From an uncultured Candidatus Saccharibacteria bacterium (GTDB taxonomy: Bacteria > Patescibacteriota > Dojkabacteria > J137), in NCBI GenBank assembly GCA_964561155.1, contig CAZLOI010000001.1:302759-366758 (forward strand): a stretch of 64,000 nt of DNA. Direction: 5' to 3'. This document shows, one piece after another, positions 5,699 through 36,200 of the stretch. A program made the translations under genes and the position numbers. Under the pieces are notes generated by a model. That model was not told where the DNA came from. It did no database searches and worked only from the letters and a program-made list of their open reading frames with translations. The first letter of the stretch is position 1, and the number at the start of each line of letters is the position of its first letter.

Positions 5699-6058
5699 AT
5701 GAAAAAATTCTATACAACTCTCGCAATATTATTCACTTACTTTTCAGCATTCGTTTCTCCTGTATTTGCTACAGGTGGTAGTTTTGTACAGATACCTAAT
5801 CCTACAAACATAGATTCACTAGAGGAATTAATTAATGCAGTAGCGAAGTTAATTGTTCCATTATTTATCCTAACTTTCCTTGCAATGCTTTTATTCGGAG
5901 CATTCACATACTTAACTGCACAAGGAGATGATTCAAAGGTTGAAAAAGCAAAGAAGATTATTGTTACAGCTATCATCGGTTTTGTATTAGCAGTCCTAGC
6001 TCCATCTATCGCTAACTTTGTTGCTAGTCTATTAGGAATCGAAGGGTTATCTTTCTAG
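5699..6058 (+). CDS. Secreted two-TM hairpin protein (VirB2/TrbC-pilin-like topology), paralog 2
   Basis: It has a signal peptide (MKKFYTTLAILFTYFSAFVSPVFATG), then TM1, a charged loop (QGDDSKVEKAKK) and TM2. It is homologous to ORFs 5345, 7263 and 7714. Confidence 0.7.
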   Translation: MKKFYTTLAILFTYFSAFVSPVFATGGSFVQIPNPTNIDSLEELINAVAKLIVPLFILTFLAMLLFGAFTYLTAQGDDSKVEKAKKIIVTAIIGFVLAVLAPSIANFVASLLGIEGLSF

Positions 6059-6059
6059 A

Positions 6060-6698
6060 ATGAAGAAAATATTTTTAGTCACTTTCTTGGTTATAGGATT
6101 CTTTGTAGCATTCCCTACAACAACGCATGCACTTACGGGAAATCCAAAAGCATGTGAGTCACCTGGTGATATACCCAATATCTGCAGAGACAACTATGCT
6201 CCTGATAATGCTTGTAATATTGCAAGAATTGCAAACCCTGAAATTGATTGCTGTATGAATTATTGTCCAGAGTTTCCGAGTACTAGGTACAATGCCGCTG
6301 GAGATTGTGCTTCAGGTAATGAAGCAGCCTGTGAAGCAGCAAGTGTATTCAGTAGCTTAAATATTTTTGGAACTAGGATTCAATATACTCCAGACAAGAT
6401 TCCTTCGTTAATTCAGTTAGCAATTTCCGCAGCGCTAGCAGTCGTTTCATTCTATGCATTATTTAGAGGAATGTTCCTATATGCAATTAAGAGACCTAAT
6501 ACAACAGATGCAGCAGAGGTTGCAAAGATTAATAAAGAGTTTGGAAACATTATTGTTGGGTTTGTACTAGCGTGGTCAGTGATATTTATAGTAGAGTTTG
6601 TTATGAGATTATTAGGGTTACCTTCATTGTCTCAGATTAATGTAAATACTTTAGATGATCCTGCAAATCCAGGTTCAAATGTAATTATTATTCAATAG
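6060..6698 (+). CDS. Secreted Cys-rich protein with a C-terminal two-TM hairpin, paralog 3 (divergent)
   Basis: It has a signal peptide, a ~70-aa ectodomain containing about 10 Cys (CESPGDIPNICRDNYAPDNACNIARIANPEIDCCMNYCPEF...), then two hydrophobic helices separated by the loop KRPNTTDAAEVAKINKEFGN. The topology matches its neighbours, but the GD[DE]xK motif is absent. Confidence 0.55.
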   Translation: MKKIFLVTFLVIGFFVAFPTTTHALTGNPKACESPGDIPNICRDNYAPDNACNIARIANPEIDCCMNYCPEFPSTRYNAAGDCASGNEAACEAASVFSSLNIFGTRIQYTPDKIPSLIQLAISAALAVVSFYALFRGMFLYAIKRPNTTDAAEVAKINKEFGNIIVGFVLAWSVIFIVEFVMRLLGLPSLSQINVNTLDDPANPGSNVIIIQ

Positions 6699-6699
6699 T

Positions 6700-7260
6700 A
6701 TGAAAAGATTAGGTCTAGGAATGATATTGGTATTGTTCTTGTACACCAAAGCAATGGCGCAGGGTATAGGAGATGTGGGAACAGAAGAGTGGGGATTACA
6801 AGCAATTAGGATTCCAATCTTTTCAACTTTGTTTACTGATCTTGCAAACTACAATACTGTTTTATCTTGGATTACATTCGCAGGAAGTATTATAGTTTCT
6901 GGTGTAGTTATCTACTGGATATACAAGATCTTAAGAGCTGGTATTCAAGCAATTCAAGCTGAAGGAGATGATGCAAAGATTACGGATGCTAGATTAAGAC
7001 TACAGGCAGCGTTGTCTGGAGTTGCATTCACTTTGTTGGTTCCAATAGTATTAAGCTTTGTAGGAGTTATATTTGGTTTTGGAACTATGTTCCAGTGGCC
7101 AAAGTCTTTCTCTGGATGTACGCAGCCTAATCAAGGAAATGAATTCTACCCACAATCAGAAGGAGGTTACCAGTATTATTTCCAAGCTTTTCTTCAGGAA
7201 GGAAGTGAAGAAGCTGCTACAGCTGTATGTAACCCAGTTGATGCAAACTTAGATAGATAA
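6700..7260 (+). CDS. Secreted two-TM hairpin protein, paralog 4
   Basis: It has a signal peptide (…KAMAQG), then TM1, the loop AIQAEGDDAKITDARLR, and TM2. The C-terminal tail contains two Cys. Confidence 0.65.
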   Translation: MKRLGLGMILVLFLYTKAMAQGIGDVGTEEWGLQAIRIPIFSTLFTDLANYNTVLSWITFAGSIIVSGVVIYWIYKILRAGIQAIQAEGDDAKITDARLRLQAALSGVAFTLLVPIVLSFVGVIFGFGTMFQWPKSFSGCTQPNQGNEFYPQSEGGYQYYFQAFLQEGSEEAATAVCNPVDANLDR

Positions 7261-7262
7261 AT

Positions 7263-7622
7263 ATGCAAGACGACTCACTATGCGGTATTGTTGGATGTGA
7301 TATTAATCAAGGAGAGAACTATCTTCTTAACTTGGATAATATTGTTCAGACAGGTCTAACTGTTTTGTTCTCTTTGATAATTATCTATGGAATATTCATG
7401 ATTATCAAAGCTGTTGTTAAGATTATTTCTAGTGAAGGAGATGAAGGGAAGCTTGAGTCTGGATTGAAAAGTATTCGTGGAGTTTATTACGGTGTTGTCA
7501 TTATATTCGTAGGATTAATAGGATTGGTAATAATCTTTGCTTTGTTTAATGTAACAGAGCTTCCTGATAATGTAGATCTTCCAGGAGGAGATGGCGGAGT
7601 AATAACCGACCCTTTCAACTAG
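7263..7622 (+). CDS. Two-TM hairpin protein, paralog 5
   Basis: TM1 (LTVLFSLIIIYGIFMII), the loop KIISSEGDEGKLESGLKSIRG, then TM2. It is about 50% identical to ORF 7714 across the hairpin. Confidence 0.65.
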   Translation: MQDDSLCGIVGCDINQGENYLLNLDNIVQTGLTVLFSLIIIYGIFMIIKAVVKIISSEGDEGKLESGLKSIRGVYYGVVIIFVGLIGLVIIFALFNVTELPDNVDLPGGDGGVITDPFN

Positions 7623-7713
7623 AGTAAATCTTCTAGCCTTATTGTCTTTTGGTCTTGTATCTTCTAATAATTTCTAATAGAATAGGTTAAATACATATTA
7701 AGAAAACTATATT

Positions 7714-8166
7714 ATGAAGAAATTCTTCGCAACGCTTTTTGTAATGTTCTTTGCTGTTACACCATTTATAGCTCCTGTAGCACATGGTCAAAATCTAATC
7801 TGTAGAGTATTTCCATTCATTGAACAAATTAAGGCTTTTGGAGTAGATGCTTTATGTGGAGGATTAACTTCAGAGGGACCAATCGATTCTGCTAGATCAC
7901 TAGTTCAAGTAGGATTAAACTTAGTATTTGTTGGTATTATCATCTTAGCAATCTTTATTATTGTTAAGGCTGCTATCAACTATATTAGATCAGAAGGAGA
8001 CGAGGACAAGATCAAGAGTGCAAACAAATCTATCAAAGCTGTATTTACTGGTATCATTGCATTATTCGTAGGAATTATCGGTATTATATTAGTTCTTGCT
8101 ATATTCAATGCTACAGAAGTAGTTCCAAATGAACTACCAGATGAGTTAGACGTACTTAATGAATAG
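7714..8166 (+). CDS. Secreted two-TM hairpin protein, paralog 6
   Basis: It has a signal peptide (…APVAHGQ) and two Cys in the N-terminal ectodomain, then TM1, the loop NYIRSEGDEDKIKSANKSIKA, and TM2. The acidic C-terminal tail matches that of ORF 7263. Confidence 0.7.
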   Translation: MKKFFATLFVMFFAVTPFIAPVAHGQNLICRVFPFIEQIKAFGVDALCGGLTSEGPIDSARSLVQVGLNLVFVGIIILAIFIIVKAAINYIRSEGDEDKIKSANKSIKAVFTGIIALFVGIIGIILVLAIFNATEVVPNELPDELDVLNE

Positions 8167-8172
8167 TAATGA

Positions 8173-8886
8173 ATGAAGATTTGTGCATTTCTAATAATAG
8201 GAATCATATTCCAATCTCTTACAAGTCCTGTTGTCGCACAAACACAGGACTTTGATTTTTCAGGCAATAATCCTGACTCCTACCAGTGCTTCGATGGAAG
8301 CGGACAACCAGATACCACATCAAATATTGTAAAAGATGAGTTACGGGGATTCTTTTTCTGCGATACGAATAATAATGGCTTCTATAATGCTGGTGAAGAA
8401 CAAGCAGTTTTAAGGCCTCCAAGGCTTCAGCAAATTGAAGTCTGGTTCGTAAGAATCATTTATGTGGTTTGGGCACTAGTTGGAGCATACTCGTTCTATC
8501 TTCTAGTAGTTCTTGGATATCAGGTAATGATCTCTCGAGGAGACCCAACATCCCTACCAAAGATTAGACAAAGAATTATTAACTACATGATTGGTTTTGC
8601 TTTAGTATTTCTAGCTATTCCAATATTAGATACGTTCTTTAGACTGCTTGGTATAAATAAAACAGTCAGCTGTTACGATGTTCAGATGCCTGGGTTCCAA
8701 TTCTTCTTTACAACACTATGTAGCGGTACAGATCCTTGTTCCTTCACTGCAGCTCAGCTAGCAGATGGTATTGTATGTCCGATCAGGAATGAAAGGAGAG
8801 CATGTGATACTGGTGCCCAAGGAGAATTTGAAATCTTCCTTTGTGACCCAGAAGCCCAGATTTGGACAAGTATAGGAACTCAATAG
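8173..8886 (+). CDS. Secreted Cys-rich protein with a central two-TM hairpin, paralog 7 (largest ectodomains)
   Basis: It has a signal peptide (…SPVVAQT) and an N-terminal ectodomain with two Cys, then TM1, the loop MISRGDPTSLPKIRQR, and TM2. The C-terminal ectodomain carries 7 Cys (SCYDVQMPG…LCSGTDPCSF…VCPIRNERRACDTG…FLCDPE). Confidence 0.6.
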   Translation: MKICAFLIIGIIFQSLTSPVVAQTQDFDFSGNNPDSYQCFDGSGQPDTTSNIVKDELRGFFFCDTNNNGFYNAGEEQAVLRPPRLQQIEVWFVRIIYVVWALVGAYSFYLLVVLGYQVMISRGDPTSLPKIRQRIINYMIGFALVFLAIPILDTFFRLLGINKTVSCYDVQMPGFQFFFTTLCSGTDPCSFTAAQLADGIVCPIRNERRACDTGAQGEFEIFLCDPEAQIWTSIGTQ

Positions 8887-8887
8887 T

Positions 8888-10390
8888 ATGAACCTAAAAC
8901 TAAAGTCATATAAAATTAATGACGATGTGTACATCGGTGACTATTCTGTATTAAAAACTTCAGACTCATTCATCGCATCCCTTAGAAACCTAGATACCTC
9001 AATATCAGATTCATCAACACATACAATTGAACTAGATATCAATGGCACTATCTGCACGATTACAAAACTTGATGAAACAATAACTGTAATATTCAATGAT
9101 GCTTCATACACTTCTTTAAACGAACTATTCCAGACTGAATTTAAAACTAACTTTAATTCAAATACTTGGAAAGAGCATTTCCTAGATATAAATGAATCAG
9201 GTATTTCTGATGTTGCTTCCTTTAATACATTCTTGTCTGGATTAACAAAGGAAGTTGTTGATACCAATGCACCAAAAAAAGAATTAGATAACCTAATATT
9301 ACAAAGCTTGGAGTCCGCAACAGATGAAAACAAGAAAGCATTGCAACGCTTTCAGGAGTTAACAGCAAAGATTTATACATCTGAAGAAAAAGTGGATGTA
9401 TACAACAACTATCAAAGTATTGTTAAAGCAAAGAAGGAGGAAAAGGATTCAATCCTGAGAGAGAAGGAACGATTGGTACAAGTACTATCTAGTTCAAAAG
9501 AGTTAATCGAATCAAAGGCGAGACTGGAGAATGAAGTTAACGTTGTATTGGAAGGGTCTGATCCTGAAGTACTTAAGAATACAATCACACAAGTTAAAGA
9601 TACTAGAATGAATCATCTTGTAAACTACATGCAAGAAGTGAAAGGTCAACACAAGTACGATGCTGAAGAGAAGGAAAGAGATTTGATGGTACCAAAAGCT
9701 TTTATAGTTATTCTACTAGTTCAATCGCTGGTATCCATTTCTTTGTTCTTTGTAACAGGGGATGTAATAGCGTTTATGTATTTGATTCTTGGTTGGATCC
9801 TAGCAATAGGTGGTGGGATTCTATTTCAAATCTATGCATACGATACAATAGCAGCTCAATTTGATAGCTCAGATGAATCTCAAGATACAGCTCCAAAGCC
9901 ACGAAGAGAATTCACGCTTAAGGTAGATGAGACACAAGACAAAGATTTAATAAAACATGCGTGGGTTGAAGCACTAAGAAGAGATCTACAAGAAGTTGTG
10001 AGTTCATTAAACCAAAGACTTGGCTCTATGACATACGAGGAACTTCAAGATAGGATGAAAGAGTTAGAAACAAAGGGAGTATTATTAGATGAAGAGATAA
10101 AAAAGCTTGATGGAGAGAAGATCGATCAAGATGATTACTATAAATTTAGAAGAGAATTAGATATCTATAGTATCGAAAGAGAGAATCTGCTGGTCAATTT
10201 GGAAGGAAAAGTAGACAATGGACTAATAGAGAATATAAAATATAGTATTAGCCGAATTTCTGACGCCAAGAAAGTTTCAGAAACAAAGCAAATAAAGTTG
10301 CCCTTTATTATTTTTAACCTTAAGGAAAAAGTAGCTTGGATAAAAGATTTACAGGTACAAAACAGTACTCAAGTATTGTTCTTCGAATAA
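8888..10390 (+). CDS. Coiled-coil membrane protein (500 aa) with a central 2-TM hairpin flanked by cytoplasmic coiled-coil domains
   Basis: Hydrophobic helices sit at about aa 272-320 (AFIVILLVQSLVSISLFFVTG / FMYLILGWILAIGGGILFQIYAY). The flanks are rich in heptad-like E/K/L repeats. No catalytic motif was found. Confidence 0.55.
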   Translation: MNLKLKSYKINDDVYIGDYSVLKTSDSFIASLRNLDTSISDSSTHTIELDINGTICTITKLDETITVIFNDASYTSLNELFQTEFKTNFNSNTWKEHFLDINESGISDVASFNTFLSGLTKEVVDTNAPKKELDNLILQSLESATDENKKALQRFQELTAKIYTSEEKVDVYNNYQSIVKAKKEEKDSILREKERLVQVLSSSKELIESKARLENEVNVVLEGSDPEVLKNTITQVKDTRMNHLVNYMQEVKGQHKYDAEEKERDLMVPKAFIVILLVQSLVSISLFFVTGDVIAFMYLILGWILAIGGGILFQIYAYDTIAAQFDSSDESQDTAPKPRREFTLKVDETQDKDLIKHAWVEALRRDLQEVVSSLNQRLGSMTYEELQDRMKELETKGVLLDEEIKKLDGEKIDQDDYYKFRRELDIYSIERENLLVNLEGKVDNGLIENIKYSISRISDAKKVSETKQIKLPFIIFNLKEKVAWIKDLQVQNSTQVLFFE

Positions 10391-12156
10391 CAGCAATATT
10401 CCTCATTGCTATCATTTCAGTTAGCCCTGTATGGGCTAGAAGTTCTACAGAAATTGGACAAGACATTATCAACAAACAAAGAGAGATTGAAGAGAACGAA
10501 CGAAGGCTAGCTGAATCTGCTGCTAATAGACAAAGATACGAAGCAGATGCAGCAAGTCTTCAGGAAGGTGTACCTCAACTAGAGGCTCAAATTAAACAAC
10601 TCGAAGAAGAGTTGAATGGTATTAAGCTTGAAATTAGTATTCTTGAACAGGAACAAGCTCTAAAGGAACTGGAAAGAGAACGAACTCAGTTTAATCAGAA
10701 TCAAACGATTAAGGGTTCATACATGGACTGGAAGAGTACAAGTCATGATGTGCGAATGTTTGTAGATGAAGATGTAGAGTTTAATAGGATACAGCAGTAT
10801 CAATCTGCAATTGCGGGAAACAATAAAGTAACTATAGATAACCTAACAGGGGAATTGATAAAGATAGATGGTCAAATGTCAGTATTAAGTCAAAAGAAAG
10901 CTGACTTAGAAGTTAAAGAAGCAGAAGTTCAGGAACAAAAAAGACAACTAGAAGAAACATTGGCTCGGTTAAGATGGGGAATAAGCTACGAAGCAGGAAA
11001 TCTTGCGGCTATAGATAACTCGATTAAGCAAGCTAGACAAGATATCGATCTACTATCCGCAGAGCAACAAGCTGCAATGGCAAGAGAGCAGGAGATCTTA
11101 CAGAATAACCCGGGTGTTGAAAACTCAGCTGGTTGCGATGGAGCAGTAGCTGGAAGCAATAGTTTCTACTTCTGTGGAAATGGACGAGATTTGTATCAAG
11201 GACACGGTGTAGGTATGAGTCAATATGGAGCTAAAGGTGCTGCAGAGCAGGGTGCGAGTGCTGTTTCGATAGTAGAGTTCTATTATCCTGGAGCGGTTGT
11301 TACAACAATAGCTGAACCTGCAGAAATCTCAATTAAATACTGCCAAGGAAACCCAGGTTTAGCTCCCTATCAAGAAAACTGTTATTACGGAGGTAACTAC
11401 TACGGTCCTGTTATAACTGAAAGAATTAGCTTTATCGACTACCTCGGTGGATTGGGTGAAATGCCATACAGTTGGCCAGTTGAGGCAAGAAAAGCTCAGA
11501 TGATTGCAGCTAGAACATACGCACTTAAAAGAACTAATAACGGAGATCCTAATTACCCAATCTGCCTAACATCATACTGTCAGGTATCGTATGTAAAAAA
11601 TGGTCAGACTCATGAAAGACAGTTAGCGATAGATACTCAAAACCAAGTTCTAATGTATGGCGGAGTTTTAATTGATGCTTTGTATTCTGCAGACAATAGT
11701 CAGAATAACGGTACAGCAGATTACGATACAAGATTTCAAAACGTATATGGTCAAGCAAACGGTAATTATCCATACCTAAGATCAGTAAATGATCAAGGTT
11801 GGGCATGGAATTCAAGAATGTACTATTTCCAGTATTGTGGTTCACATGCATGCGGACTATGGCCATGGAAAACAAGGACGTATTCATATGCAGAATTTGA
11901 TAATTTCTTAACGTGGGTTGGAAATAACTTGTATTGGGAGTTCGGTACTGCAAAAAATGCAGTAGGAAATACAAATTATATTAACTTCGAACGAGATGCA
12001 TCTGGTAGAATTAAGAAGATTTTAATATATGGTACAAATGGATCATATACTCTAGGAGGATGGTGGTTCAAGAACGCATGGATATCTTGGGTAGCATCGA
12101 CTGGAACATATGACTATATATACAGTCAGACTTTAAACGTAGTACAGAATAACTAA
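10336..12156 (+). CDS. Secreted/anchored coiled-coil protein with a C-terminal SpoIID/LytB-type cell-wall lytic domain
   Basis: N-terminal hydrophobic signal/anchor (ITAIFLIAIISVSPVWA), ~230 aa of coiled coil, then the SpoIID-family hallmarks GHGVGMSQYGAKGAA and ALYSADNSQNNGTADYDTRFQNVYG...YPYLRSVND. The annotated start overlaps the preceding ORF by 55 nt, so the true start may be downstream. Confidence 0.75.
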   Translation: MDKRFTGTKQYSSIVLRITAIFLIAIISVSPVWARSSTEIGQDIINKQREIEENERRLAESAANRQRYEADAASLQEGVPQLEAQIKQLEEELNGIKLEISILEQEQALKELERERTQFNQNQTIKGSYMDWKSTSHDVRMFVDEDVEFNRIQQYQSAIAGNNKVTIDNLTGELIKIDGQMSVLSQKKADLEVKEAEVQEQKRQLEETLARLRWGISYEAGNLAAIDNSIKQARQDIDLLSAEQQAAMAREQEILQNNPGVENSAGCDGAVAGSNSFYFCGNGRDLYQGHGVGMSQYGAKGAAEQGASAVSIVEFYYPGAVVTTIAEPAEISIKYCQGNPGLAPYQENCYYGGNYYGPVITERISFIDYLGGLGEMPYSWPVEARKAQMIAARTYALKRTNNGDPNYPICLTSYCQVSYVKNGQTHERQLAIDTQNQVLMYGGVLIDALYSADNSQNNGTADYDTRFQNVYGQANGNYPYLRSVNDQGWAWNSRMYYFQYCGSHACGLWPWKTRTYSYAEFDNFLTWVGNNLYWEFGTAKNAVGNTNYINFERDASGRIKKILIYGTNGSYTLGGWWFKNAWISWVASTGTYDYIYSQTLNVVQNN

Positions 12157-12794
12157 TGAATCCAAATACACCACAAGACAACAAGAAACTTGAGATGATC
12201 AAAAAGATGGATCAGATAGTGCCAAAAGCATCTGGAGGTTTCTTTGGTTCTGTTCAATACAGACCTAATATGAGTTTCGAAGGCCAGAACAGGAACGAGA
12301 AGGTCTATATTATGGCAAGAAGACACTGGTTAACAAATGTAGGGTGGATTATAAATAATGTCATTTATATAATGCTACCGCTTCTAGTTGGATTACTATT
12401 TAATGTATTCGATCCAAAGCTACCACCAGTAAATGGTCAAGTTTTCTCAGTTCTTGTACTTGGATATTATTCATTGGTATTTACAAATATCTTTAAGAAC
12501 TTTGTAGATTGGTATTTTGATATATATTTTGTAACTAACGAAAGAGTTATGGATGTTATCTTTAAGCCATTCGCTTCGTATCAAATTGAAGAGATTCCAT
12601 TGAATAGTATTGAAAGTGTTAGAGAGAAGACTCCTGGAGTTTTGGCTGCAATATTCAATTTTGGAAACATTACAATTACAACTGAAGCCCATGACAGATC
12701 AATGGTATTCCCTTATATTTCAAAACCTACAAAGGTTCGCGATATTATTTCAGACTTAGCATTTGTTGCTCGAACATTTAACAATGGAAATTAA
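12156..12794 (+). CDS. Membrane protein with 2 TM helices and a bacterial PH (bPH_2/YdbS-like, DUF304) domain
   Basis: Two hydrophobic helices (LTNVGWIINNVIYIMLPLLVGLLF; VFSVLVLGYYSLVFTNIF) are followed by DWYFDIYFVTNERVMDVIFKPFASYQIEEIPLNSIESV, which is typical of membrane-flanked bPH domains. Start codon overlaps the stop of the previous gene (ATGA). Confidence 0.55.
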   Translation: MNPNTPQDNKKLEMIKKMDQIVPKASGGFFGSVQYRPNMSFEGQNRNEKVYIMARRHWLTNVGWIINNVIYIMLPLLVGLLFNVFDPKLPPVNGQVFSVLVLGYYSLVFTNIFKNFVDWYFDIYFVTNERVMDVIFKPFASYQIEEIPLNSIESVREKTPGVLAAIFNFGNITITTEAHDRSMVFPYISKPTKVRDIISDLAFVARTFNNGN

Positions 12795-13002
12795 CACATC
12801 AACAGTATTCAGTTTCTTAAAAATATTTGCGATTGTAATCGCATTATTTCATTTGCTTGCTGGGTTATATGTTACTAGGCAAGTAACAAGAATGAATAAA
12901 ATAGTTAAGACTAGAAATGGACCTTTCATATTATTAGTAGCCCTAGCATACATAATCGTACTGCTGTTAGTACTTCTACTAATAATCTCGATACAGGTTT
13001 GA
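12763..13002 (+). CDS. Small 2-TM membrane protein (79 aa)
   Basis: Two strongly hydrophobic helices; overlaps the end of the bPH gene, suggesting operon coupling. Confidence 0.4.
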   Translation: MLLEHLTMEINTSTVFSFLKIFAIVIALFHLLAGLYVTRQVTRMNKIVKTRNGPFILLVALAYIIVLLLVLLLIISIQV

Positions 13003-13031
13003 GAAATTTTCAAAATTCTATATACTAAGGT

Positions 13032-15794
13032 ATGGCAATTAAAGCAGACTTTATAACAGGTAAGCAATCGTTCGGCAACTGGGCAGGGGTTTACGCCTTT
13101 GTACCTGAATCTGGAGAGAGCAAGGAAATGTTCGTTTCTATACGAATATCCGTAGAGAGTGACGAATTTAATTTAGAAAATGCAGGAAAACTTCTTTTAG
13201 ATGAACTTCAAGGTATATATTTCTCAGACAAAAAAGCATATTCAGATCAGGTGAATAGACTTGAGAATGCATTGTGGAAGATGAAGGGAAAGATGGACTA
13301 CATTCTTTCGAAGGAACAATCCTTAATGGAGAAAGGTTTAGATATAGAACTTGCTGTGTGTGTTTATGATGATGTCTTTGCATATACTGCGGTTATAGGT
13401 GAAAGCAAGATAAAGATCTATAGAGAAGAAAAGTTAATAGATATTTCAGACGCATTGTCAGACGCTGCTAATTCAGGTTTCTTTAAAACAGGAAGCCTAG
13501 AATTGGATCCAGAAGACAGAATATTCCTAATCACATCTAAAGCTGCTAGAGAATTCTCTGACAAAGAGATTGAAACAGGAGCTAGGTTACTTGATTTAGG
13601 TAGATTAAGAGCAAGCTATCCTGATTCATCAGAAGGTACTGCTGCTGTAATGATATACAAGGAAGGAGCTACTGCATTAGCTGTTGAAGAGAATATACAA
13701 GCTAATGATCAAGGTATGCAAGCTACGCAATCAGTGGATGGAGCATCAGAAGATAGGAAAATGGATGGTGGCACATATGGAGATCAGAATATTTCTTCAG
13801 GGGCAACAGAAGCTGTATCTCAAACAGTATCTGAAGTAACAACAATAGCTATGATGGGAGAAAAGGCTAAGCAGTTCTCAAGAGTTGCAAAGACTAATCT
13901 TGTTAAAGCAGGTAACTTTACAATAGGAAAACTAAAAGTATTTAGAAACAAAGTAGAGGATTATAGAAACAAGAGAAATGGAGTAGCAATGAATGATGAG
14001 TCAATTAACGATGAAGAAGTAATGTCAAATGATATGGGAGATGAGATTGAACCAGTTGCTCAGAGAGTAAGCAATACTGTTGCACCACAACTTTCAGATT
14101 CAAGATTCTATGACGAGTCAGAAGACGAGATGGAACAACCAGTTGTAGCACCTGTTCAGAATATGGAAACACCAGTGCAAGACTTTGAACCAGAATACGA
14201 TACAGAAGGCAATTTGATTCCACAGTACAAGCCATTCAAGGATGAAGAAGAAGATCTTTCTGTTAACGAAGTTAATTCGGACACAGAGGAAATATACGAT
14301 GATGTTTACGAAGAAGTGCAAGATGAACCAGTAGCTCAATTTGGAGCTAGTACTATGAGACAAAGCCAAAAGGCTCCACAAGGCAGTAGATTCGATAGTG
14401 TAAAGGGAAGCTTTAATAATGTAAACAAAGAGAAATTATCAGGAATAGTTGCCAAGGCTTTAGACTTACTAAAGAGACTTGGAAGTATGCTTTTGGAATT
14501 AACTCTTTGGTTAATTGAGTTATTCAAGAAAGAAATACTAGGTGTTGGTGAGAATAGACGCGATAGATTGTCTAGAGCAAAGAGAAGAAGAAGAAACAGA
14601 ATCATATTAGTTGCTGTAGTAATTATCTTGTTCTTAATAATAAGTAATTCGATTAGAACAGCACAGGATGCTAGATTCCAACAGGAACTATTAGATACAG
14701 CAAGAACAAAGGTATCTGAATTCCAGAATACACATACTTCACTAGATGCAAACATTCAAACAGCAAAGGCTTCGGGCGATGTAGCAATTCAGAATCTAAT
14801 TGCAGACTTTGATAGATTGAACGCAGAAGTTAATGTACAAAAGAGAGAAGGTTTATTAGAAGAAGAGTTCACAACAATTCAGAACGATATTCAATTCTCT
14901 AAAGATGAGCTACTAGATATTATCGCTATCCTAACACCTCAGGTATTGGTAGATGTTGGTAGAAGCTACCCAGACGCAAATCTTGCAGACATTGAATACT
15001 CAAATGGAGGTATCTTTATTAGTGACCAAGGAAGAAACGTTATCTACAGAGTAGGTACAGCATCTTTAAATGGTGTTGCTCAGAGCTTTGTTACTGGATT
15101 AACTCAACCATATGCTCTAGTTAGAAATGTAGATGGAGACATTGTTTTCTATGACAACGATACTACTTCAGCACTTGGTATTGTAGATTATGAATCTGCG
15201 GAAGTTTCTAGAATGCCAGGTTTAACTCCAAGTAGTATAGGAAGAGTTACTGAATCTGCGCTATATACAGGAAATGATTCTTTATATGAAGTTCGAAATT
15301 CTACTACTCAGATCTTTAAAAGAGACAAGAGTGGTTCTGGATATGTAAATGGCGGAGCAACTCAATCAGGAGACTTTAATTCAAACTGGAGAGTAGATTC
15401 TGATTTTGCTAACGCAGTAGACATAGCAGCACCTTACGAAATCTATATGCTGATCAAGGGTCAAGGTATCAAGAGATATTTTGCTAGAGAAGCAAACACA
15501 CTAACATCTGATCTATTCAGTAACATATCTCAAACAGATCTAGCTGCTGTACAGAATGCTAACTCGATGGATGCAGTCGATTCATTCGTAGCTGTTGGAG
15601 ATGCAGCAAACAAGAGAGTGCTACTATTTACAATAGACGATACTCCTCAGAAAGGATTAACTCTTTTCAAGCAATTCGTATATCGAGGATCTGAAAATGT
15701 ATTCAACGATCTAGATGAAGTTGTAATCGTTCCAAGCGAAAGTTCAATCTACGTTCTTGATAACCTAAAGGTTATCAAACTACCACTTCAATAA
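13032..15794 (+). CDS. Large single-pass membrane protein (920 aa): cytoplasmic N-domain (possibly PP2C-like), acidic linker, TM, extracytoplasmic beta-propeller-like C-domain
   Basis: The TM lies at about aa 525-545 (RIILVAVVIILFLIISNSI) after a basic RRRRNR stop-transfer. The C-terminal 380 aa carry repeated blade-like motifs (GIFISDQGRNVIYRV, DIVFYDND, SLYEVRNS, NKRVLLFTIDD, SSIYVLDNL). The N-terminal 230 aa (…ELAVCVYDDVFAYTAVIGESKIKIY…DRIFLITSKAAREFSD) weakly recall the PP2C/SpoIIE fold. Confidence 0.55.
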   Translation: MAIKADFITGKQSFGNWAGVYAFVPESGESKEMFVSIRISVESDEFNLENAGKLLLDELQGIYFSDKKAYSDQVNRLENALWKMKGKMDYILSKEQSLMEKGLDIELAVCVYDDVFAYTAVIGESKIKIYREEKLIDISDALSDAANSGFFKTGSLELDPEDRIFLITSKAAREFSDKEIETGARLLDLGRLRASYPDSSEGTAAVMIYKEGATALAVEENIQANDQGMQATQSVDGASEDRKMDGGTYGDQNISSGATEAVSQTVSEVTTIAMMGEKAKQFSRVAKTNLVKAGNFTIGKLKVFRNKVEDYRNKRNGVAMNDESINDEEVMSNDMGDEIEPVAQRVSNTVAPQLSDSRFYDESEDEMEQPVVAPVQNMETPVQDFEPEYDTEGNLIPQYKPFKDEEEDLSVNEVNSDTEEIYDDVYEEVQDEPVAQFGASTMRQSQKAPQGSRFDSVKGSFNNVNKEKLSGIVAKALDLLKRLGSMLLELTLWLIELFKKEILGVGENRRDRLSRAKRRRRNRIILVAVVIILFLIISNSIRTAQDARFQQELLDTARTKVSEFQNTHTSLDANIQTAKASGDVAIQNLIADFDRLNAEVNVQKREGLLEEEFTTIQNDIQFSKDELLDIIAILTPQVLVDVGRSYPDANLADIEYSNGGIFISDQGRNVIYRVGTASLNGVAQSFVTGLTQPYALVRNVDGDIVFYDNDTTSALGIVDYESAEVSRMPGLTPSSIGRVTESALYTGNDSLYEVRNSTTQIFKRDKSGSGYVNGGATQSGDFNSNWRVDSDFANAVDIAAPYEIYMLIKGQGIKRYFAREANTLTSDLFSNISQTDLAAVQNANSMDAVDSFVAVGDAANKRVLLFTIDDTPQKGLTLFKQFVYRGSENVFNDLDEVVIVPSESSIYVLDNLKVIKLPLQ

Positions 15795-15864: not shown

Positions 15865-16320
15865 TTGAAAATTCTTTCATCAAATAAAAAAGCATACTAT
15901 GACTATGAGGTCCTCGATAAATATGAGGCAGGAATTTCATTGCTTGGTTGGGAAGTAAAATCAATTAAAAATACGAACTTCAATATAACAAATGGCTACA
16001 TAGTACCAAGGGACAATGAACTTCTAATGGTTGGAATGAGGGTAGGTTTATTGCAAGGTTCCTTTGAACAAGACAAGAACAGGGAAACTAGGGATAGAAA
16101 GCTTTTATTAAAGAAATCCGAGATCTTTACTATAATGCACAAGGTTAAGACTAAAGGACTAACAGTAGTTCCTTTGGAAGTATATTTAAATGATCGAGGT
16201 TTAATCAAAGTAGATATAGCGATTGTAAAAGGTAAGAAAAAATATCAGAAAAAGGATAAGATAAAGGAGAGGGATCAAATTAGATCAATCGAAATAGATA
16301 GAAAATCATACAGTATATGA
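15865..16320 (+). CDS. smpB: SsrA-binding protein SmpB
   Basis: NKKAYYDYEVLDKYEAGISLLGWEVKSIK…ELLMVGMRV…DRKLLLKKSEI…KGLTVVPLEVYLNDRGLIKVDIAIVKGKKKYQKKDK matches the SmpB family pattern. No tmRNA (ssrA) is visible next to it. Confidence 0.85.
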   Translation: MKILSSNKKAYYDYEVLDKYEAGISLLGWEVKSIKNTNFNITNGYIVPRDNELLMVGMRVGLLQGSFEQDKNRETRDRKLLLKKSEIFTIMHKVKTKGLTVVPLEVYLNDRGLIKVDIAIVKGKKKYQKKDKIKERDQIRSIEIDRKSYSI

Positions 16321-16883
16321 ACGACACACATCAAAGCCAAGCCATAAAGGATCTAATAATATATCTAGAGAAATTTGGATTTAAATATCTAGGACCTGGA
16401 GAAAACGGAGATGTATTATTCACAGCTCCAAATGGACAAGCAGTTTCTGGAGAAATAGCATACAGATTTGTAAAGACTCAGTTAGAAGATCCAGCAAAGA
16501 CATCTACAGGAGGTACTGAAGCGATGCCTGCAATGCCTAATGTAATACCGACTAACCTAGATTCAGGATTTGATTCAAAGATAGAAGTAGAGAAAAGTCT
16601 AGATGAAGCAAACAAGATTGAAAAGGCGAAGGAGCAAGCATCAGAAGATGCAAATTCTTTAAGCGATTTGAAAGTAAAGAACTCTTCACCAAGAATGAAG
16701 ATTGGAAATACAACAATTCCTCTTCCATTCGGAGATGGCTTTCTACCAAAATCTTTTAGACCAGACGACACAGATAGTATTCAAGATTTCATATCTAAGA
16801 AGGCTTCTGCAAGTCATAGTGATCCAGCCGCATGGCTTAGAGTACTATGGGAAAAGTTTTTGAAGGAATTGTCATCGAAATAA
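16317..16883 (+). CDS. Hypothetical protein (188 aa)
   Basis: Its ORF overlaps the smpB stop and sits directly upstream of the VirB4-like ATPase; no motif was recognised. Confidence 0.45.
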   Translation: MNDTHQSQAIKDLIIYLEKFGFKYLGPGENGDVLFTAPNGQAVSGEIAYRFVKTQLEDPAKTSTGGTEAMPAMPNVIPTNLDSGFDSKIEVEKSLDEANKIEKAKEQASEDANSLSDLKVKNSSPRMKIGNTTIPLPFGDGFLPKSFRPDDTDSIQDFISKKASASHSDPAAWLRVLWEKFLKELSSK

Positions 16884-16910: not shown

Positions 16911-19358
16911 ATGTTTAGCTCAGCCGTAATCGGAAATATTCTTATTGTATTCTTAATACTAGTTCTAGCCGGTGTTATTATCTTCAGCTTGTATTCCTGG
17001 CTCTTGACCGAATTAAAAGAAAGAGTCTTAATGGACAAGTCTTTAAACCTAGTATTCTACGAAGTTAGACTAGCAAGAAACAGCGAAGTAGAGATAAAGG
17101 CTATGGAACAGTTGTTCTCAGGACTAACTGGATTCTCTGAAGATCTTAAAGGAATGAAAGGGTTCATAGGAGCTAGAACTTTTGTAAGTTTTGAACTCGT
17201 CGCATATTATCAAAGTATTAGATTCTACGTAGTTTGTCCTAAAAAGATATCAAGTGTTGTTGATAGATTAATCAACGGAACATACCCTAGTGCTGAGATA
17301 ATGAAAGTTAAAGAGTATAACTTGTTCCCTGATCAGGGAAGTGTTTCATACGCTAGTTTGGAAGTAGACAAGGATTGGAAGATACCATTTCAAACATATG
17401 AAGAACTACCAGTAGATAGTTTGGCTACCCTTACAGATGTAATGAGTAAGCTAGGACCAGGTGAAAGTGCTGCTTTCCAGATTGTAATTGCTCCAGCAGG
17501 AGGAGACTGGATTAAATCATCAAAGGAATATGCAAAGAAGATTAGAGAAGATGCGCAGCCAAAGACTGCAAAGGAAGGAGAGCCTGCACCTAAACCTGCA
17601 AAACAGAAGGTGCCAGATGAGACTCTTTCATTAATTGAACGTAAAGCTGAGAAGAATGGTTTCTATACAGATCTTCGTGTTGTAGTTTGTTCTCCGGACA
17701 AGTTTTCTGCAGACAATCATATGACCAATATATTAAGTACCTTCGATCAGTTCTCAAAGATTGGAGGAAGCAAGCTTAAGAAGACCAAAGACAAGAACAA
17801 ACTAAAGACGATATCTAGAGATTTTATATACAGGCTGCCAAGGAACAAGATGGTTTTGAATGCAACGGAGCTTGCAACACTGTACCATTTCCCAAGCAAG
17901 AGTATTCAGGCTCCACATATTAAATGGTTGTTGTCCAAGAAGCTACCTGCTCCTGACTTCACTACAAATCAGTGGGAGAAGGACTATATGTATATTGGAA
18001 AGAATACTTTCAGAGGATCGGAGAAAGAGATATTCTTAAAACCTGATTCAAGACTTAGACACTTCTATATAATCGGACAAACTGGTTCTGGTAAGTCTGG
18101 TTTCATGCTTTCCATGATGGTTAGAGATATTAAGATGGGACATGGTTGTGCATATATAGACCCACACGGATCAGATGCAGAGAAGATATTGCAGCAGATT
18201 CCACCAGAGAGAATAGAGGATGTGATTGTTTTTGATCCATCAGATATCGAAAGACCTATGGGTCTTAATATGTTGGAATTTAAAACTCCTGCACAGAAGA
18301 CTTTGGTTACCAATGAGATGCTTAATATCTTTGATAGTTTGTATAACCTAAAGGTTACTGGAGGACCTATGTTCGAGCAGTACTTTAGATATGGAATCAT
18401 GCTTTTAACAGAGGATGAGGAATCGGGATCAACTCTTCTAGAGATACCTAAGCTATTCGCGGATGAAGGCTACAGAAACTATAAACTATCTAAGTGTAAG
18501 GATCAGGAAGTTATAGACTTCTGGAGAAAGCAGGCAGAGGCAGCCGGAGGAGAAGCTTCCCTTAAGAATATTGTTCCATACGTTGTTTCAAAGCTTGCTC
18601 CTTTCTTAACTAACGCATATCTAAGACCTATTGTTGCTCAACAGAAATCTACTTTAGATTTCAGAGAGATTATGGACAACAAGAAGATTCTAATTGCAAA
18701 ACTTTCTAAAGGACGTATTGGAGAGATGAATGCAAATCTTCTAGGTATGATCTTAATTGGTAAGTTACTTGTTGGAGCGCTAGAGAGAGACGAGATTCCA
18801 GAGGATGACCGTATTCCTTTCTATCTATACATCGACGAGTTCCAGAACTTCTTAACAGATGGTATCCAGATTATTCTTTCTGAGGCTAGAAAATACAAGC
18901 TTTCCCTAACCATCGCTCACCAGTTCCTTGGTCAACTAACAAGACAGGGTGGAGATACAAAGATTAAGGATGCTGTTTTTGGTAACGTTGGTAACAAGGC
19001 TATTTTCAGAGTTGGAGAGGAGGATTCACCGTTCCTAAGGAAAGTATTGGATGGAGAATTGGAGGAATCAGATCTACAACAGATTGAAAACTTAATGGCT
19101 TTTGTAAAGATTCAGGTTGATGGGAAACCAACTCCTGCTTTTACGCTCACAGCGAGATATGGGGAGTCTCCATACGATATGATGTCAGAACCCAACCCAC
19201 AGCTTTCTAACCTCATTAAGCAGGTCTCTAGGCTCAAATATGGCAAGGATGCATCTCTTGTAGAGAATGAAGTTAAGTTAAGGGGTAGTTTCATTAAAGA
19301 GAAGACAGAGGAAACCAAGAAACCAGGAGGAATGTTTGGTGGGTTCCCAGGATTTTAA
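16911..19358 (+). CDS. T4SS-type P-loop ATPase, VirB4/TrbE/CagE-like (alternatively VirD4/TraG-like), with an N-terminal TM anchor
   Basis: An N-terminal 28-aa hydrophobic helix is followed by a Walker A at about 48% of the length (HFYIIGQTGSGKSG) and a Walker B with downstream Gln about 245 aa later (PFYLYIDEFQNFL…EARKYKLSLTIAHQFLGQL). The size (815 aa) and the Walker A position fit VirB4 better than VirD4. This is a motif-memory assignment; no search was run. Confidence 0.65.
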   Translation: MFSSAVIGNILIVFLILVLAGVIIFSLYSWLLTELKERVLMDKSLNLVFYEVRLARNSEVEIKAMEQLFSGLTGFSEDLKGMKGFIGARTFVSFELVAYYQSIRFYVVCPKKISSVVDRLINGTYPSAEIMKVKEYNLFPDQGSVSYASLEVDKDWKIPFQTYEELPVDSLATLTDVMSKLGPGESAAFQIVIAPAGGDWIKSSKEYAKKIREDAQPKTAKEGEPAPKPAKQKVPDETLSLIERKAEKNGFYTDLRVVVCSPDKFSADNHMTNILSTFDQFSKIGGSKLKKTKDKNKLKTISRDFIYRLPRNKMVLNATELATLYHFPSKSIQAPHIKWLLSKKLPAPDFTTNQWEKDYMYIGKNTFRGSEKEIFLKPDSRLRHFYIIGQTGSGKSGFMLSMMVRDIKMGHGCAYIDPHGSDAEKILQQIPPERIEDVIVFDPSDIERPMGLNMLEFKTPAQKTLVTNEMLNIFDSLYNLKVTGGPMFEQYFRYGIMLLTEDEESGSTLLEIPKLFADEGYRNYKLSKCKDQEVIDFWRKQAEAAGGEASLKNIVPYVVSKLAPFLTNAYLRPIVAQQKSTLDFREIMDNKKILIAKLSKGRIGEMNANLLGMILIGKLLVGALERDEIPEDDRIPFYLYIDEFQNFLTDGIQIILSEARKYKLSLTIAHQFLGQLTRQGGDTKIKDAVFGNVGNKAIFRVGEEDSPFLRKVLDGELEESDLQQIENLMAFVKIQVDGKPTPAFTLTARYGESPYDMMSEPNPQLSNLIKQVSRLKYGKDASLVENEVKLRGSFIKEKTEETKKPGGMFGGFPGF

Positions 19359-19957: not shown

Positions 19958-20031
19958 TAGGCCCAGGTGGACTCGAACCACCGACCCCAGCTTTATAAGA
20001 ACTGTGCTCTAACCACCTGAGCTATGGGCCT
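19958..20031 (-). tRNA. tRNA-Ile with anticodon UAU (decodes AUA)
   Basis: Reverse complement folds as AGGCCCA/TGGGCCT acceptor, D arm GCTC-AGGTGGTTA-GAGC, anticodon stem CAGTT/AGCTG, loop CUUAUAA, T arm GGTGG-TTCGAGT-CCACC, discriminator A; no encoded CCA. The D arm is identical to the ITS tRNA-Ile(GAU). Confidence 0.75.
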
Positions 20032-30717: not shown

Positions 30718-30884
30718 GATAGCTTAGTAATTTCTTCGCCAGTAAGGATTCCGGGGGTTCATAGAACTTATCTTCAATCTTTCTATTATTATCACGAAAA
30801 TAGCGGTCAAATTTGGGTCAAAATGCACAAAACTCAATGTACTCCATAGCCCTATGTACCTTAAATTTTCTCTACTTTTTCTGC

Positions 30885-30914
30885 TTGACCAGATGTTACT
30901 TTCTTTGATACAAT
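30885..30914 (+). promoter_or_regulatory. Candidate sigma70-type promoter upstream of the rRNA operon
   Basis: TTGACC-N18-TACAAT lies ~250 nt upstream of the 16S 5' end. The spacer is 1 nt long of optimal, so the call is weak. Confidence 0.3.
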
Positions 30915-31160
30915 CACTTCACACTTATCTTAAAGCAATTTAAGAAGTGCTAAACAATTATCCCAAACAATAAATTGAACTTTTAAAAGTGATAAGGAAC
31001 GTCAAGTTTTCTTTGAGTTTAATCTAAACTCTTGTAAACGTTCTGTTTTGGAATCGACAGAATGTTATTCCAGAAATACTAAGCAATTAGTTATTTCTAA
31101 ATTATTCCGCTATTAAATTAGCAAACTTAAATATGGAATCTCGATTTATCGAGATGAAAT

Positions 31161-32684
<1,524 letters not shown>

Positions 32685-32915: not shown

Positions 32916-32984
32916 TTTAATTATAGGAGGGGTCAAGTAAGGAACACGAGCAATTTGCTCGAAACGGCCTACTAGCCGTTTCTC

Positions 32985-33164: not shown

Positions 33165-36200
<3,036 letters not shown>

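Follow-up and report, generated by a model that had tools for sequence, protein, structure and literature searches.

Patescibacteria are dependent on host bacteria. In one species tested a chromosomal T4SS of these organisms was found to be essential (Quinonero-Coronel et al., 2025; PMC12102498), and orphan homologues of coupling proteins (T4CPs) are near-universal in the phylum, with thousands already catalogued. The window studied here, i.e. the whole 64-kb stretch of DNA that was analyzed, is part of a Candidatus Dojkabacteria (Patescibacteria/CPR) chromosome, rich in housekeeping genes, in which an array of pilin genes lies upstream of a gene for an 815-aa P-loop ATPase. An earlier note on this DNA had taken the protein for a VirB4, which raises the question whether it is a VirB4 or a coupling protein of the VirD4 type, and which apparatus it serves. 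The answer is of practical interest, as relabelling from VirB4 to T4CP prevents the mis-annotation of the core ATPase of a system.

The gene and the parts of its product are as follows:

16911..19358, + strand: gene of an 815-aa DUF8128-type T4CP homologue (ORF with ATG start; homologues; AF2 model)
16923..17003, + strand: single N-terminal TM helix, aa ~5-31 (hydropathy, AF2 helix, basic residues after the helix)
17043..17945, + strand: DUF8128 (PF26449), aa ~45-345 (precomputed Pfam match on an identical protein; probable VirB4-N-like fold)
17958..19190, + strand: RecA-like nucleotide-binding domain of T4CP type, aa ~350-760 (Pfam, NCBIfam, PDB profile, Foldseek, tblastn)
18075..18101, + strand: Walker A GQTGSGKSG, aa 389-397 (invariant G389, G392, G394, K395)
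18822..18851, + strand: Walker B YLYIDEFQNF, aa 638-647 (invariant D642, E643)
19311..19355, + strand: disordered C-terminal tail ending in GGMFGGFPGF (pLDDT <50 for aa 801-815)

The gene is regarded as real, because more than 4,500 homologues were found at E <= 1e-5, including a database entry with 100% identity. They display the architecture PF26449 plus PF10412/PF02534/PF12696, with PF26449 on nearly all listed homologues according to precomputed Pfam matches, and NCBI names the relatives 'TraM recognition domain-containing' or 'T4SS DNA-binding domain-containing' protein. The whole-protein AF2 model has a pLDDT of 86.9. Its N-terminus forms a single long helix (aa 4-44), within which lies the sole strong hydrophobic segment of the protein (aa 6-24, Kyte-Doolittle peak 3.12). 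Since basic residues come after the TM helix in every member of a 33-sequence family alignment, the topology would be N-out/C-in with the remainder cytoplasmic. The tails of the family combine a Gly-rich or acidic stretch with a terminal Phe. A large cytoplasmic N-domain together with a single TM helix departs from the usual build of TrwB, VirD4 and other textbook T4CPs. Thus far the earlier description agrees with our results: the ORF and the Walker A, Walker B and AHQFLGQL motifs are all present, and profiles, hydropathy and the AF2 model bear out a P-loop ATPase of the T4SS superfamily that has a single TM helix at its N-terminus. The VirB3-like segment thought to be fused to the N-terminus, on the other hand, turned out to be a bare TM helix in front of DUF8128, for which no VirB3 match was obtained in Pfam.

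The ATPase half was compared with both families in question. Walker A begins at aa 389, at 47.7% of the length, and Walker B is followed by an arginine motif, EARKY (aa 658-662, with R660), and then by AHQ (aa 669-671), the start of AHQFLGQL at aa 669. Along with the invariant residues listed above, R660, H670 and Q671 are shared by all 33 sequences, so that every catalytic position is intact, and the Walker B, arginine and glutamine motifs align with LFIDEL...GRKAGL...GLQ of TrwB. In the AF2 model Walker A and Walker B are separated by a helical insertion (aa ~460-590), a candidate counterpart of the all-alpha domain that T4CPs have within their nucleotide-binding domain. With Foldseek, this half superposes on Cagbeta (TMt 0.52-0.58), DotL (TMt 0.55) and TrwB (TMt 0.62-0.69); for the TrwB chains (~412-427 residues), alignments of 412-468 columns span TMt 0.58-0.69, values that hold at chain level only.

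In profile searches, Pfam TraG-D_C (PF12696) reaches 25.7 bits on the protein against a gathering cutoff of 22 and matches the whole family (33/33); TrwB_AAD_bind (PF10412) was found in 30/33 and T4SS-DNA_transf (PF02534) in 16/33 members. The VirB4 model CagE_TrbE_VirB (PF03135) matches 0/33 and AAA_10 (PF12846) 3/33, weakly, while PF19044, which CPR VirB4s match, was not matched in the 33 members. Three of these, CagE_TrbE_VirB, TraG-D_C and TrwB_AAD_bind, were the profiles on which the earlier note would have had its VirB4 assignment judged, and they speak against it. NCBIfam VirB4_CagE (TIGR00929) gives 14 bits (E = 0.009) against a cutoff of 643, and partial NCBIfam matches were to TraD, VirD4-like CD1115 and CedD. 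When the family profile was searched against PDB sequences, DotL (3.9e-5) and TrwB (1.9e-3) came first, followed by HerA (0.06), with no VirB4 among the matches. The probability in hhalign against a profile of Gram-positive TcpF-type VirB4s was 46%, and an HMM built from that profile did not match the protein. By sequence, it can be assigned with high confidence to the T4CP type and not to VirB4; the VirD4 that had been reported as missing from the locus is, on this assignment, the gene itself.

Another reading is an ATPase of HerA/FtsK-like or defence type unrelated to secretion, e.g. MADS mad8-like or HerA-type. DUF87 (PF01935), the central domain of HerA, matches 32/33 members and scores 22.5 bits on the protein, PADLOC reports mad8 (E = 7.7e-10) and weak HerA matches, Foldseek a HerA match (5e-11) and PHROGs a match to phrog_5156, a family of unknown function (E = 1.9e-76). 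However, DUF87 stays under its gathering cutoff of 23.2, FtsK (PF01580) reaches 13.7 bits against a cutoff of 24, and HerA ranks below DotL and TrwB. The best match was hence to neither FtsK/SpoIIIE nor HerA/DUF87, the families that the earlier note had set against its own call, with DUF87 a close second. The gene is accompanied neither by NurA nor by further mad genes, defence neighbours are absent too, PADLOC on four neighbours was without matches, and unlike genes of defence islands it is vertically conserved at a stable chromosomal position. In addition, Foldseek found no HAS-barrel-type or HerA N-domain match for the DUF8128 model. We consider this reading extremely improbable. A defence or phage origin was likewise rejected, the PADLOC mad8/HerA matches being without system partners and the PHROGs match uninformative.

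The resemblance to VirB4 has its source in the other half of the protein. A model of the DUF8128 domain alone (pLDDT 90.4) was compared with the PDB by Foldseek, and the top 13 matches were all to the N-domain of TrwK/VirB4 (E = 4.6e-7 to 8e-6, TMq 0.45-0.54), a likeness at fold level only and by this one method. DUF8128 therefore probably has a VirB4-N-domain-like fold, judged from the model, which would account for the VirB4-like proportions of the protein; what the earlier note had seen in these proportions thus has a real basis, although no VirB4 sequence model matches. Used alone as a query, the domain retrieved 1,467 representative clusters, and no literature on 'PF26449' or 'DUF8128' was found. 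If the likeness is genuine, it bears on the divergence of VirD4 and VirB4.

On these grounds the protein could still be read as an orthologue of VirB4/TrbE/CagE to which a VirB3-like segment is fused and which serves a T4SS as the ATPase for its assembly and for pilus biogenesis. It has about 800 aa in two domains with Walker A near mid-length, and the lowest Foldseek E-value of the whole model belongs to a full-length colinear alignment with TrwK/VirB4 (3e-14, ~900 columns). Yet as a rigid body the whole model superposes badly on VirB4 (TM 0.30, rmsd 17 Å), the N-terminus offers one TM helix in place of a VirB3 domain, and T4CP models match throughout the family where VirB4 models fail. Dojkabacteria genomes of the published set, moreover, have a separate VirB4, and the CPR VirB4s there match PF19044, as far as the available part of that source goes (PMC12102498).

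A plasmid relative argues in the same direction. Reference VirB4 and T4CP sequences for this comparison were taken from a Bacillus plasmid. On B. subtilis plasmid NZ_CP154917.1 an 885-aa 'DUF87 domain-containing protein' is encoded immediately before a replication-relaxation (relaxase) gene; the operon also has a separate 847-aa VirB4. In hhalign 633 columns of the family profile, with DUF8128 among them, are aligned to the 885-aa protein (E = 2.4e-39), whereas the VirB4 of the plasmid matches in the P-loop only (E = 0.064). The homologue consequently sits by a relaxase and coexists with a genuine VirB4. By tblastn, plasmid T4CPs reach up to 33% identity (E = 3e-66). At the sequence level the VirB4 reading is largely refuted, and we hold it to be very improbable overall.

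Which apparatus the protein serves was approached through its neighbourhood, with these features upstream of the gene:

5699..8886, + strand: array of six VirB2-like (T4SS) pilin genes (Pfam T4SS_pilin, common topology, synteny)
8888..15794, + strand: block between the pilins and smpB (Pfam, TM prediction, synteny)
15865..16320, + strand: smpB, a housekeeping gene (Pfam SmpB, E = 1.7e-44)
16317..16883, + strand: 188-aa ORF, candidate partner (start overlaps the smpB stop; 27-bp gap to the ATPase gene)

Two of the six array ORFs match Pfam T4SS_pilin (5699-6058 and 8173-8886; E = 4.5e-14 and 6e-4), and all six are small membrane proteins with a common topology by TM prediction. The pilin-like array of the earlier note is hence real, only its distance had to be corrected from 7 kb to 8.0 kb, measured from the array end to the ATPase gene. 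The block that follows encodes a 500-aa coiled-coil single-TM, a 606-aa SpoIID-domain, a 212-aa bPH_3 and a 920-aa single-TM protein. Then comes, by spacing in the sequence, a tightly packed run of smpB, the 188-aa ORF, the ATPase gene and a 191-aa ORF, smpB being first; within it no convincing terminator was found, and promoter and terminator scans stayed at chance level. Ten Dojkabacteria-type loci keep the order from pilins to ATPase, even where the ATPase has no more than 38-39% identity (L019, L080), and SpoIID-bPH(-SmpB) is also close to the gene in three Levybacteria loci (L038, L039, L046). As the housekeeping gene smpB sits within the block, this synteny may represent inherited gene order and not a functional operon.

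Homologues of the 188-aa ORF hold the equal position in Dojkabacteria-type loci, and the 191-aa ORF downstream is not conserved. Directly upstream of the gene, a same-strand ORF of 90-260 aa is present in 72/88 loci, and one of at least 60 aa in 77/88. A single conserved upstream partner was rejected: the ORFs fall into class-specific families (at least three, three or four) whose homology is unsupported (hhalign <=32%), and a jackhmmer link between those of Dojkabacteria and Paceibacteria probably reflects low-complexity sequence.

Throughout the window the protein is the only ATPase of the VirB4/VirD4 superfamily, the one point of gene context in favour of a VirB4. Among all ORFs of at least 100 aa in the window, Pfam detected no relaxase and no VirB4, so that the earlier note was right in seeing no relaxase. 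In a 72%-identical relative the array is preceded by a ClpB-like gene, and the 10 kb upstream of this gene contain no VirB4. The 89 related CPR loci likewise yielded no relaxase or VirB4 in searches of low sensitivity; the TcpF-type VirB4 HMM, which found none in these loci or the window, is a weak negative, because no divergent CPR VirB4 served as its positive control. Classical conjugation by this locus is unlikely, as no relaxase is present, and the chromosomal context without relaxase argues against an ICE transfer module, in agreement with the earlier judgement.

Taken together, we favour the reading, with a probability of roughly 0.6, that the gene encodes a DUF8128-type T4CP of the VirD4/TraG/TraD/TrwB superfamily, which feeds a chromosomal T4SS-like apparatus of Patescibacteria. 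That it works with a VirB2-pilus T4SS in particular is close to an even call, if slightly short of one. By analogy with its family the protein would be a membrane-anchored ring ATPase on the cytoplasmic face, presumably a hexamer stimulated by DNA or substrate, and ATP hydrolysis would serve to recruit a substrate, protein or nucleic acid, and feed it into the apparatus. DUF8128 may act as a docking module, comparable to the VirB4 N-domain with its contacts to VirB3/VirB8 tails, and candidates for adaptor contacts are the tail at the C-terminus and the small ORF upstream. In this manner a T4CP without a VirB10 partner could dock onto a monoderm T4SS.

The distribution of the family opens a different path, an exapted orphan: a T4CP by descent that is independent of any T4SS in Patescibacteria and might be a stand-alone membrane-anchored translocase of DNA or nucleoprotein (uptake, export, or chromosome handling with a nearby Xer-type recombinase) or have another housekeeping role. 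Across CPR classes the family was met in no fewer than 599 species-level genomes; it is strongly conserved, with 53% mean column identity across classes in the 33-sequence alignment, and its loci lie mostly among housekeeping genes (tRNA synthetases, CorA, sigma factor, DnaX, ribosomal proteins). Proximity of the gene to pilins or to any other T4SS gene is confined to Dojkabacteria-type genomes and a few Levybacteria. Published data fit in: 5,713 T4CP homologues (VirD4- or TcpA-type) were reported from 2,918 Patescibacteria genomes, only 148 of them near virB4; in Southlakia epibionticum the T4SS is essential and the T4CP homologue, which may or may not be of DUF8128 type, dispensable; and exaptation was raised by the authors themselves (PMC12102498). 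Further points in its favour are an Xer-like integrase, present 3-9 kb downstream of the gene in 22/89 loci, and a weak NCBIfam match to CedD, a DNA-translocating ATPase (E = 1.5e-4). Against this, the integrase linkage is distant and on the opposite strand, no partner genes indicating a specific alternative process were found, and the linkage to pilins, SpoIID and bPH in Dojkabacteria and Levybacteria would be left unexplained. A replacement of FtsK is not needed, since FtsK-type (t4cp2) proteins are tabulated separately in CPR genomes in the available part of the supplement (PMC12102498). An exapted orphan is accordingly judged unlikely, and a T4CP that feeds a T4SS-like apparatus remains the preferred reading.

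A bolder extension of it concerns the origin of the domain combination. DUF8128-type T4CPs might be a surviving 'VirB4-shaped' lineage, or evolutionary intermediate, that retained the N-terminal docking domain of VirB4 and, where it is the sole VirB4/VirD4-type ATPase near a pilin array, docks onto the base of the T4SS, either beside VirB4 or instead of it. If so, the protein could contribute to the biogenesis of pili or to host-directed transfer and would not be a classical relaxosome receptor. We regard this as speculative and decidedly unlikely.

Compared with known systems, the protein shares with canonical T4CPs (TrwB of R388, VirD4, TraD/TraG, Cagbeta, DotL) the membrane-anchored RecA-like ATPase, with aligned Walker A, Walker B, arginine and glutamine motifs and TMt of 0.55-0.69, at a sequence identity of ~14-15%. 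In canonical T4CPs, as described in the literature, a membrane domain of usually two helices leads directly into the nucleotide-binding domain; here, by contrast, one TM helix is followed by an extra cytoplasmic domain of 300 aa. VirB4 (TrwK of R388; TcpF/PrgJ of Gram-positives) is alike in size, two-domain layout, N-domain fold and ATPase superfamily, but the present protein differs in its own TM anchor, its T4CP-type ATPase motifs and profiles, and the lack of any matching VirB4 sequence model. The Bacillus 885-aa protein has the same colinear DUF8128 and T4CP nucleotide-binding domain at ~25% identity, in a conjugation operon with relaxase and separate VirB4, whereas the Dojkabacteria gene is accompanied by neither. 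On haloarchaeal plasmids the two domains are split over adjacent genes, and a 'VirB4-shaped' T4CP lineage may be common to CPR bacteria, Firmicutes plasmids and haloarchaea. Closest in description are the Patescibacteria T4CP homologues (VirD4-type, CONJScan t4cp1) of Quinonero-Coronel et al. (2025; PMC12102498), from the same phylum, chromosomal, usually far from virB4 and without relaxase; they bear the database names of our family, the likeness being one of description and not accession by accession. The position 8 kb from a VirB2-like array in this Dojkabacteria lineage is not general for them, and the DUF8128 N-domain with its probable VirB4-like fold is absent from that study. The protein is thus an ordinary member of an already catalogued family, to which a modestly interesting domain observation can be added.

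An open reading frame (ORF) coding for a homologue of DUF8128-type type IV coupling proteins (T4CPs) and its C-terminal tail are located in the window as follows:

16911..19358, forward strand: ORF of 815 aa with ATG start
19311-19355, forward strand: disordered C-terminal tail, seen across the C-termini of the alignment A1 (33 family members)

The ORF is a real gene with more than 4,500 homologues at E <= 1e-5 in the database search, one identical entry among them, and its nearest named relatives belong to Candidatus Dojkabacteria. All sequence features listed in the earlier note were recovered from the ORF listing, motif positions and hydropathy: GQTGSGKSG begins at residue 389 (47.7% of the way along the protein), YLYIDEFQNF at residue 638 and AHQFLGQL at residue 669, and the one strong hydrophobic segment (residues 6-24) was modelled by AlphaFold2 (AF2) within one long helix (residues 4-44). 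In A1 the disordered tail includes a stretch that is acidic or rich in Gly, and a Phe stands at or close to the very C-terminus (...GGFPGF, ...EEDIF, ...DEDMFF). TraD of the F plasmid binds TraM through an acidic, Phe-terminated tail, which the tails of the A1 family appear to resemble.

The ATPase is of the coupling-protein type, because T4CP models, the canonical T4CPs DotL and TrwB and a Bacillus plasmid homologue match it, whereas VirB4 models and a VirB4 profile do not. TraG-D_C was the sole Pfam family above its gathering cutoff (25.7 bits vs 22), with DUF87 (22.5), TrwB_AAD_bind (16) and FtsK_SpoIIIE (13.7) below threshold and no match at all to CagE_TrbE_VirB. Among NCBIfam models those of TraD, VirD4-like-CD1115 and CedD type matched partially, and VirB4_CagE reached only E = 0.009 and 14 bits (cutoff 643). 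When each member of A1 (42-100% identity) was scanned with Pfam, TraG-D_C was found in 33/33, DUF87 in 32/33, TrwB_AAD_bind in 30/33 and T4SS-DNA_transf in 16/33, and of the VirB4-type models AAA_10 in 3/33 and CagE_TrbE_VirB in 0/33. Against all PDB chain sequences the A1 profile ranked DotL (3.9e-5) and TrwB (1.9e-3) top, with HerA marginal (0.06) and no VirB4 among the matches. The A1-TrwB alignment set the family's IDEF...ILSEARKYKLSL...AHQ opposite IDEL...LTKGRKAGLRV...GLQ of TrwB, pairing the Walker B, arginine and glutamine motifs. Furthermore, phrog_5156 (PHROGs, function unknown, 824 positions) matched residues 243-801 at E = 1.9e-76; relatives therefore also figure among sequences labelled as phage or prophage.

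On a 27.5-kb plasmid of Bacillus subtilis an 885-aa homologue heads the conjugal-transfer operon immediately 5' of the replication-relaxation (relaxase) gene, and the same operon encodes, as a separate 847-aa ATPase, a genuine VirB4 of the Gram-positive kind (TcpF/AAA_10 type). In this conjugation system the T4CP-type homologue occupies the T4CP slot beside the relaxase, alongside VirB4. The 885-aa protein matched the A1 profile over 633 columns, comprising N-terminal domain and ATPase (E = 2.4e-39), and the match of the 847-aa VirB4 was confined to the P-loop region (E = 0.064). Comparison of A1 with A3, a profile of 20 TcpF-type VirB4 sequences, gave a probability of 46% (E = 2e-4, residues 252-424), and an HMM from A3 had no match in the window or in 89 loci of Patescibacteria (CPR). 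The VirB4 label of the earlier note should read T4CP (VirD4-type) with a DUF8128 N-terminal domain. That the protein is a VirB4 after all is very unlikely, being largely excluded by the CagE_TrbE_VirB and A3 results and by context, and a HerA or defence ATPase, likewise largely excluded by sequence tests and context, is scarcely credible.

PF26449 (DUF8128) is present in all close homologues according to precomputed database annotation, and a literature search found no mention of it. Residues 41-340, searched alone, retrieved 1,467 representative clusters at E <= 1e-3, mostly proteins of ~800-860 aa or fragments. In Foldseek searches of the PDB, the full-length AF2 model (pLDDT 86.9, pTM 0.74) obtained its lowest E-values (3e-14) with TrwK, the VirB4 of R388, colinear over the full length (~900 columns) and with a poor rigid-body fit (TM 0.30, rmsd 17 Å), and the ATPase half alone fitted well on TrwB (TMt 0.62-0.69), Cagbeta (0.52-0.58) and DotL (0.55). 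For residues 41-345, modelled on their own (pLDDT 90.4, pTM 0.89), the top 13 matches were all TrwK/VirB4 (E = 4.6e-7 to 8e-6, probability 1.0, TMq 0.45-0.54), followed by unrelated flavoenzymes (E >= 1e-4, TM ~0.3), which suggests for DUF8128 a fold like the VirB4 N-terminal domain, a likeness from a single method on predicted models at 8-10% identity. This resemblance would account for the VirB4 proportions remarked on earlier. The VirB3-like N-terminal fusion proposed with them is absent: no VirB3-like domain was detected in the protein, and a bare TM helix runs directly into DUF8128.

Sequence and models thus show that the protein is anchored by a TM helix and that, in the cytoplasm, a module resembling the VirB4 N-domain is joined to a catalytically intact RecA ATPase of T4CP type; this ATPase has a modelled helical insertion separating Walker A from Walker B, and a disordered tail with terminal Phe closes the protein. 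By comparison with its family, it would assemble into a membrane-bound ATPase ring and there recruit and drive substrate, DUF8128 being the likely docking module.

The window is a chromosomal CPR stretch and not a mobile element; it holds GroEL, two Clp ATPases, SmpB, FtsH, PolA, S1, Rho, ComEC, DprA and TopA, ribosomal and translation-factor genes and ten tRNAs. Features around the T4CP gene and elsewhere are:

2785-5331, forward strand: ClpB/ClpC-like double-AAA+ protein without Clp_N domain, directly upstream of the pilin array
5699-8886, forward strand: VirB2-like pilin array, six tandem small ORFs (Pfam and shared topology)
8888-15794, forward strand: CPR-specific envelope-protein block between pilin array and smpB
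Block member between array and T4CP gene: 500-aa coiled-coil single-TM protein
Block member between array and T4CP gene: 606-aa SpoIID-domain protein with long coiled coil
Block member between array and T4CP gene: bPH_3 protein
Block member between array and T4CP gene: 920-aa protein with one central TM and acidic low-complexity N-half
16317-16883, forward strand: 188-aa ORF, preceded by smpB, the last two genes ahead of the T4CP gene
19958-20031, reverse strand: tRNA-Ile, anticodon TAT, adjoining the recombinase
20083-20937, reverse strand: Xer-like tyrosine recombinase, adjoining tRNA-Ile
32842-33057: tRNA-Ile(GAT) and tRNA-Ala(TGC)
49279-50139, reverse strand: ComEC metallo-beta-lactamase domain ORF
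50136-51512, reverse strand: ComEC Competence domain ORF
55341-56165: DprA

The pilin-like array reported earlier was confirmed: all six ORFs begin with a signal-like segment and carry two hydrophobic helices at the C-terminal end, the first and last matching Pfam T4SS_pilin/TrbC-VirB2 and the other four assigned by topology. Such arrays have been described in CPR (Quinonero-Coronel et al., 2025; PMC12102498). The 188-aa ORF and smpB overlap at the start codon of the former and the stop codon of the latter (ATGA); the T4CP gene follows the 188-aa ORF after 27 bp and is in turn followed, 16 bp on, by a 191-aa ORF; promoter and terminator scans around the gene remained at chance level. The ClpB/ClpC-like gene also directly precedes the array in two relatives (L091, 1436-3982; L092, 10001-12550), and the window has a canonical ClpC/B with Clp_N at 38512-40998; an unfoldase kept beside a pilin array may merit attention. 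ComEC is split over two overlapping ORFs (49279-51512, reverse strand), and the region ~30700-36500 looks like a putative rRNA operon because of raised GC content (up to 0.45-0.47), the tRNA-Ile/tRNA-Ala pair and the lack of long ORFs.

Ten loci of Dojkabacteria type retain the whole block from pilins to T4CP gene, even where the T4CPs share as little as 38-39% identity, the envelope block travelling with both in these genomes. No member of the envelope block is known to belong to a T4SS. In three Levybacteria loci SpoIID-bPH lies near the gene but downstream, with SmpB also in two of the three. Because of this synteny, a link to a VirB2-pilus T4SS has moderate support. That the protein was exapted and acts independently of the T4SS is a less likely but live rival. 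In its favour, linkage is generally missing in other CPR classes, neighbours in Paceibacteria/ABY1-type loci being unrelated housekeeping genes, and in Southlakia epibionticum the T4CP homologue is dispensable though the T4SS is essential, for which reason exaptation ‘cannot be ruled out’ according to the authors (PMC12102498). The essential Southlakia T4SS cluster was described as lacking recognizable coupling and relaxase proteins (Wang et al., 2023). A same-strand ORF of 90-260 aa lies directly 5' of the T4CP gene in 72/88 loci (>=60 aa in 77/88) across CPR classes, often with a low-complexity N-half; homology among its three or four class-specific families could not be shown by sequence comparison, so that conservation is positional only. 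A Xer-like integrase follows 3-9 kb downstream in 22/89 loci.

The survey of 3,035 Patescibacteria genomes reported 5,713 T4CP homologues (VirD4- or TcpA-type) in 2,918 of them, only 148 near virB4, with relaxases almost absent, and a separate, monophyletic CPR VirB4 in 2,417 genomes, at least two Dojkabacteria genomes among them (Quinonero-Coronel et al., 2025; PMC12102498). The family is therefore already catalogued in CPR, and the present protein is a further member of it. A second paralogue that joins DUF8128 to a T4CP ATPase occurs less than 10 kb from the first in some CPR genomes (L009, 18202-21108, reverse strand, 968 aa; L042). In agreement with the earlier note no relaxase, and no VirB4 either, was found in the Pfam scan of window ORFs of 100 aa or more, nor within 10 kb upstream of the array-preceding ClpB-like gene in a 72%-identical relative. 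Since a relaxase is missing, a conjugative relaxosome is an unlikely substrate; a protein, or DNA handled another way, is possible.

Outside CPR, 281 annotated plasmid records matched the ATPase half in tblastn (up to 33% identity, E = 3e-66), their hosts coming from Proteobacteria, Actinobacteria, Bacillus and Archaea, annotated as ‘type IV secretion system DNA-binding domain-containing’, ‘TraM recognition domain-containing’, ‘type IV secretory system conjugative DNA transfer family’ or ‘DUF87 domain-containing’. The point of added interest is that DUF8128 has a VirB4-like fold and is present in bona fide conjugative T4CPs, a hint at a possible docking mode of such T4CPs and at the relationship of VirB4 to VirD4. 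T4CPs of Bacillus plasmids carry the same N-terminal domain fused to the ATPase as in CPR, whereas on haloarchaeal plasmids the DUF8128-like domain is an ORF of its own immediately upstream of the T4CP-like ATPase, as on the Haladaptatus plasmid NZ_CP085328.1 (L090; 350 aa, 8785-9837, then 930 aa, 9922-12714) and similarly on plasmids of Natrinema, Halomontanus and Halobacterium. Fused in Bacillus and split in haloarchaea, the module of two parts is therefore ancient, in keeping with the MPF-FATA (Firmicutes/Archaea-type) background that has been proposed for the T4SS of CPR (PMC12102498).
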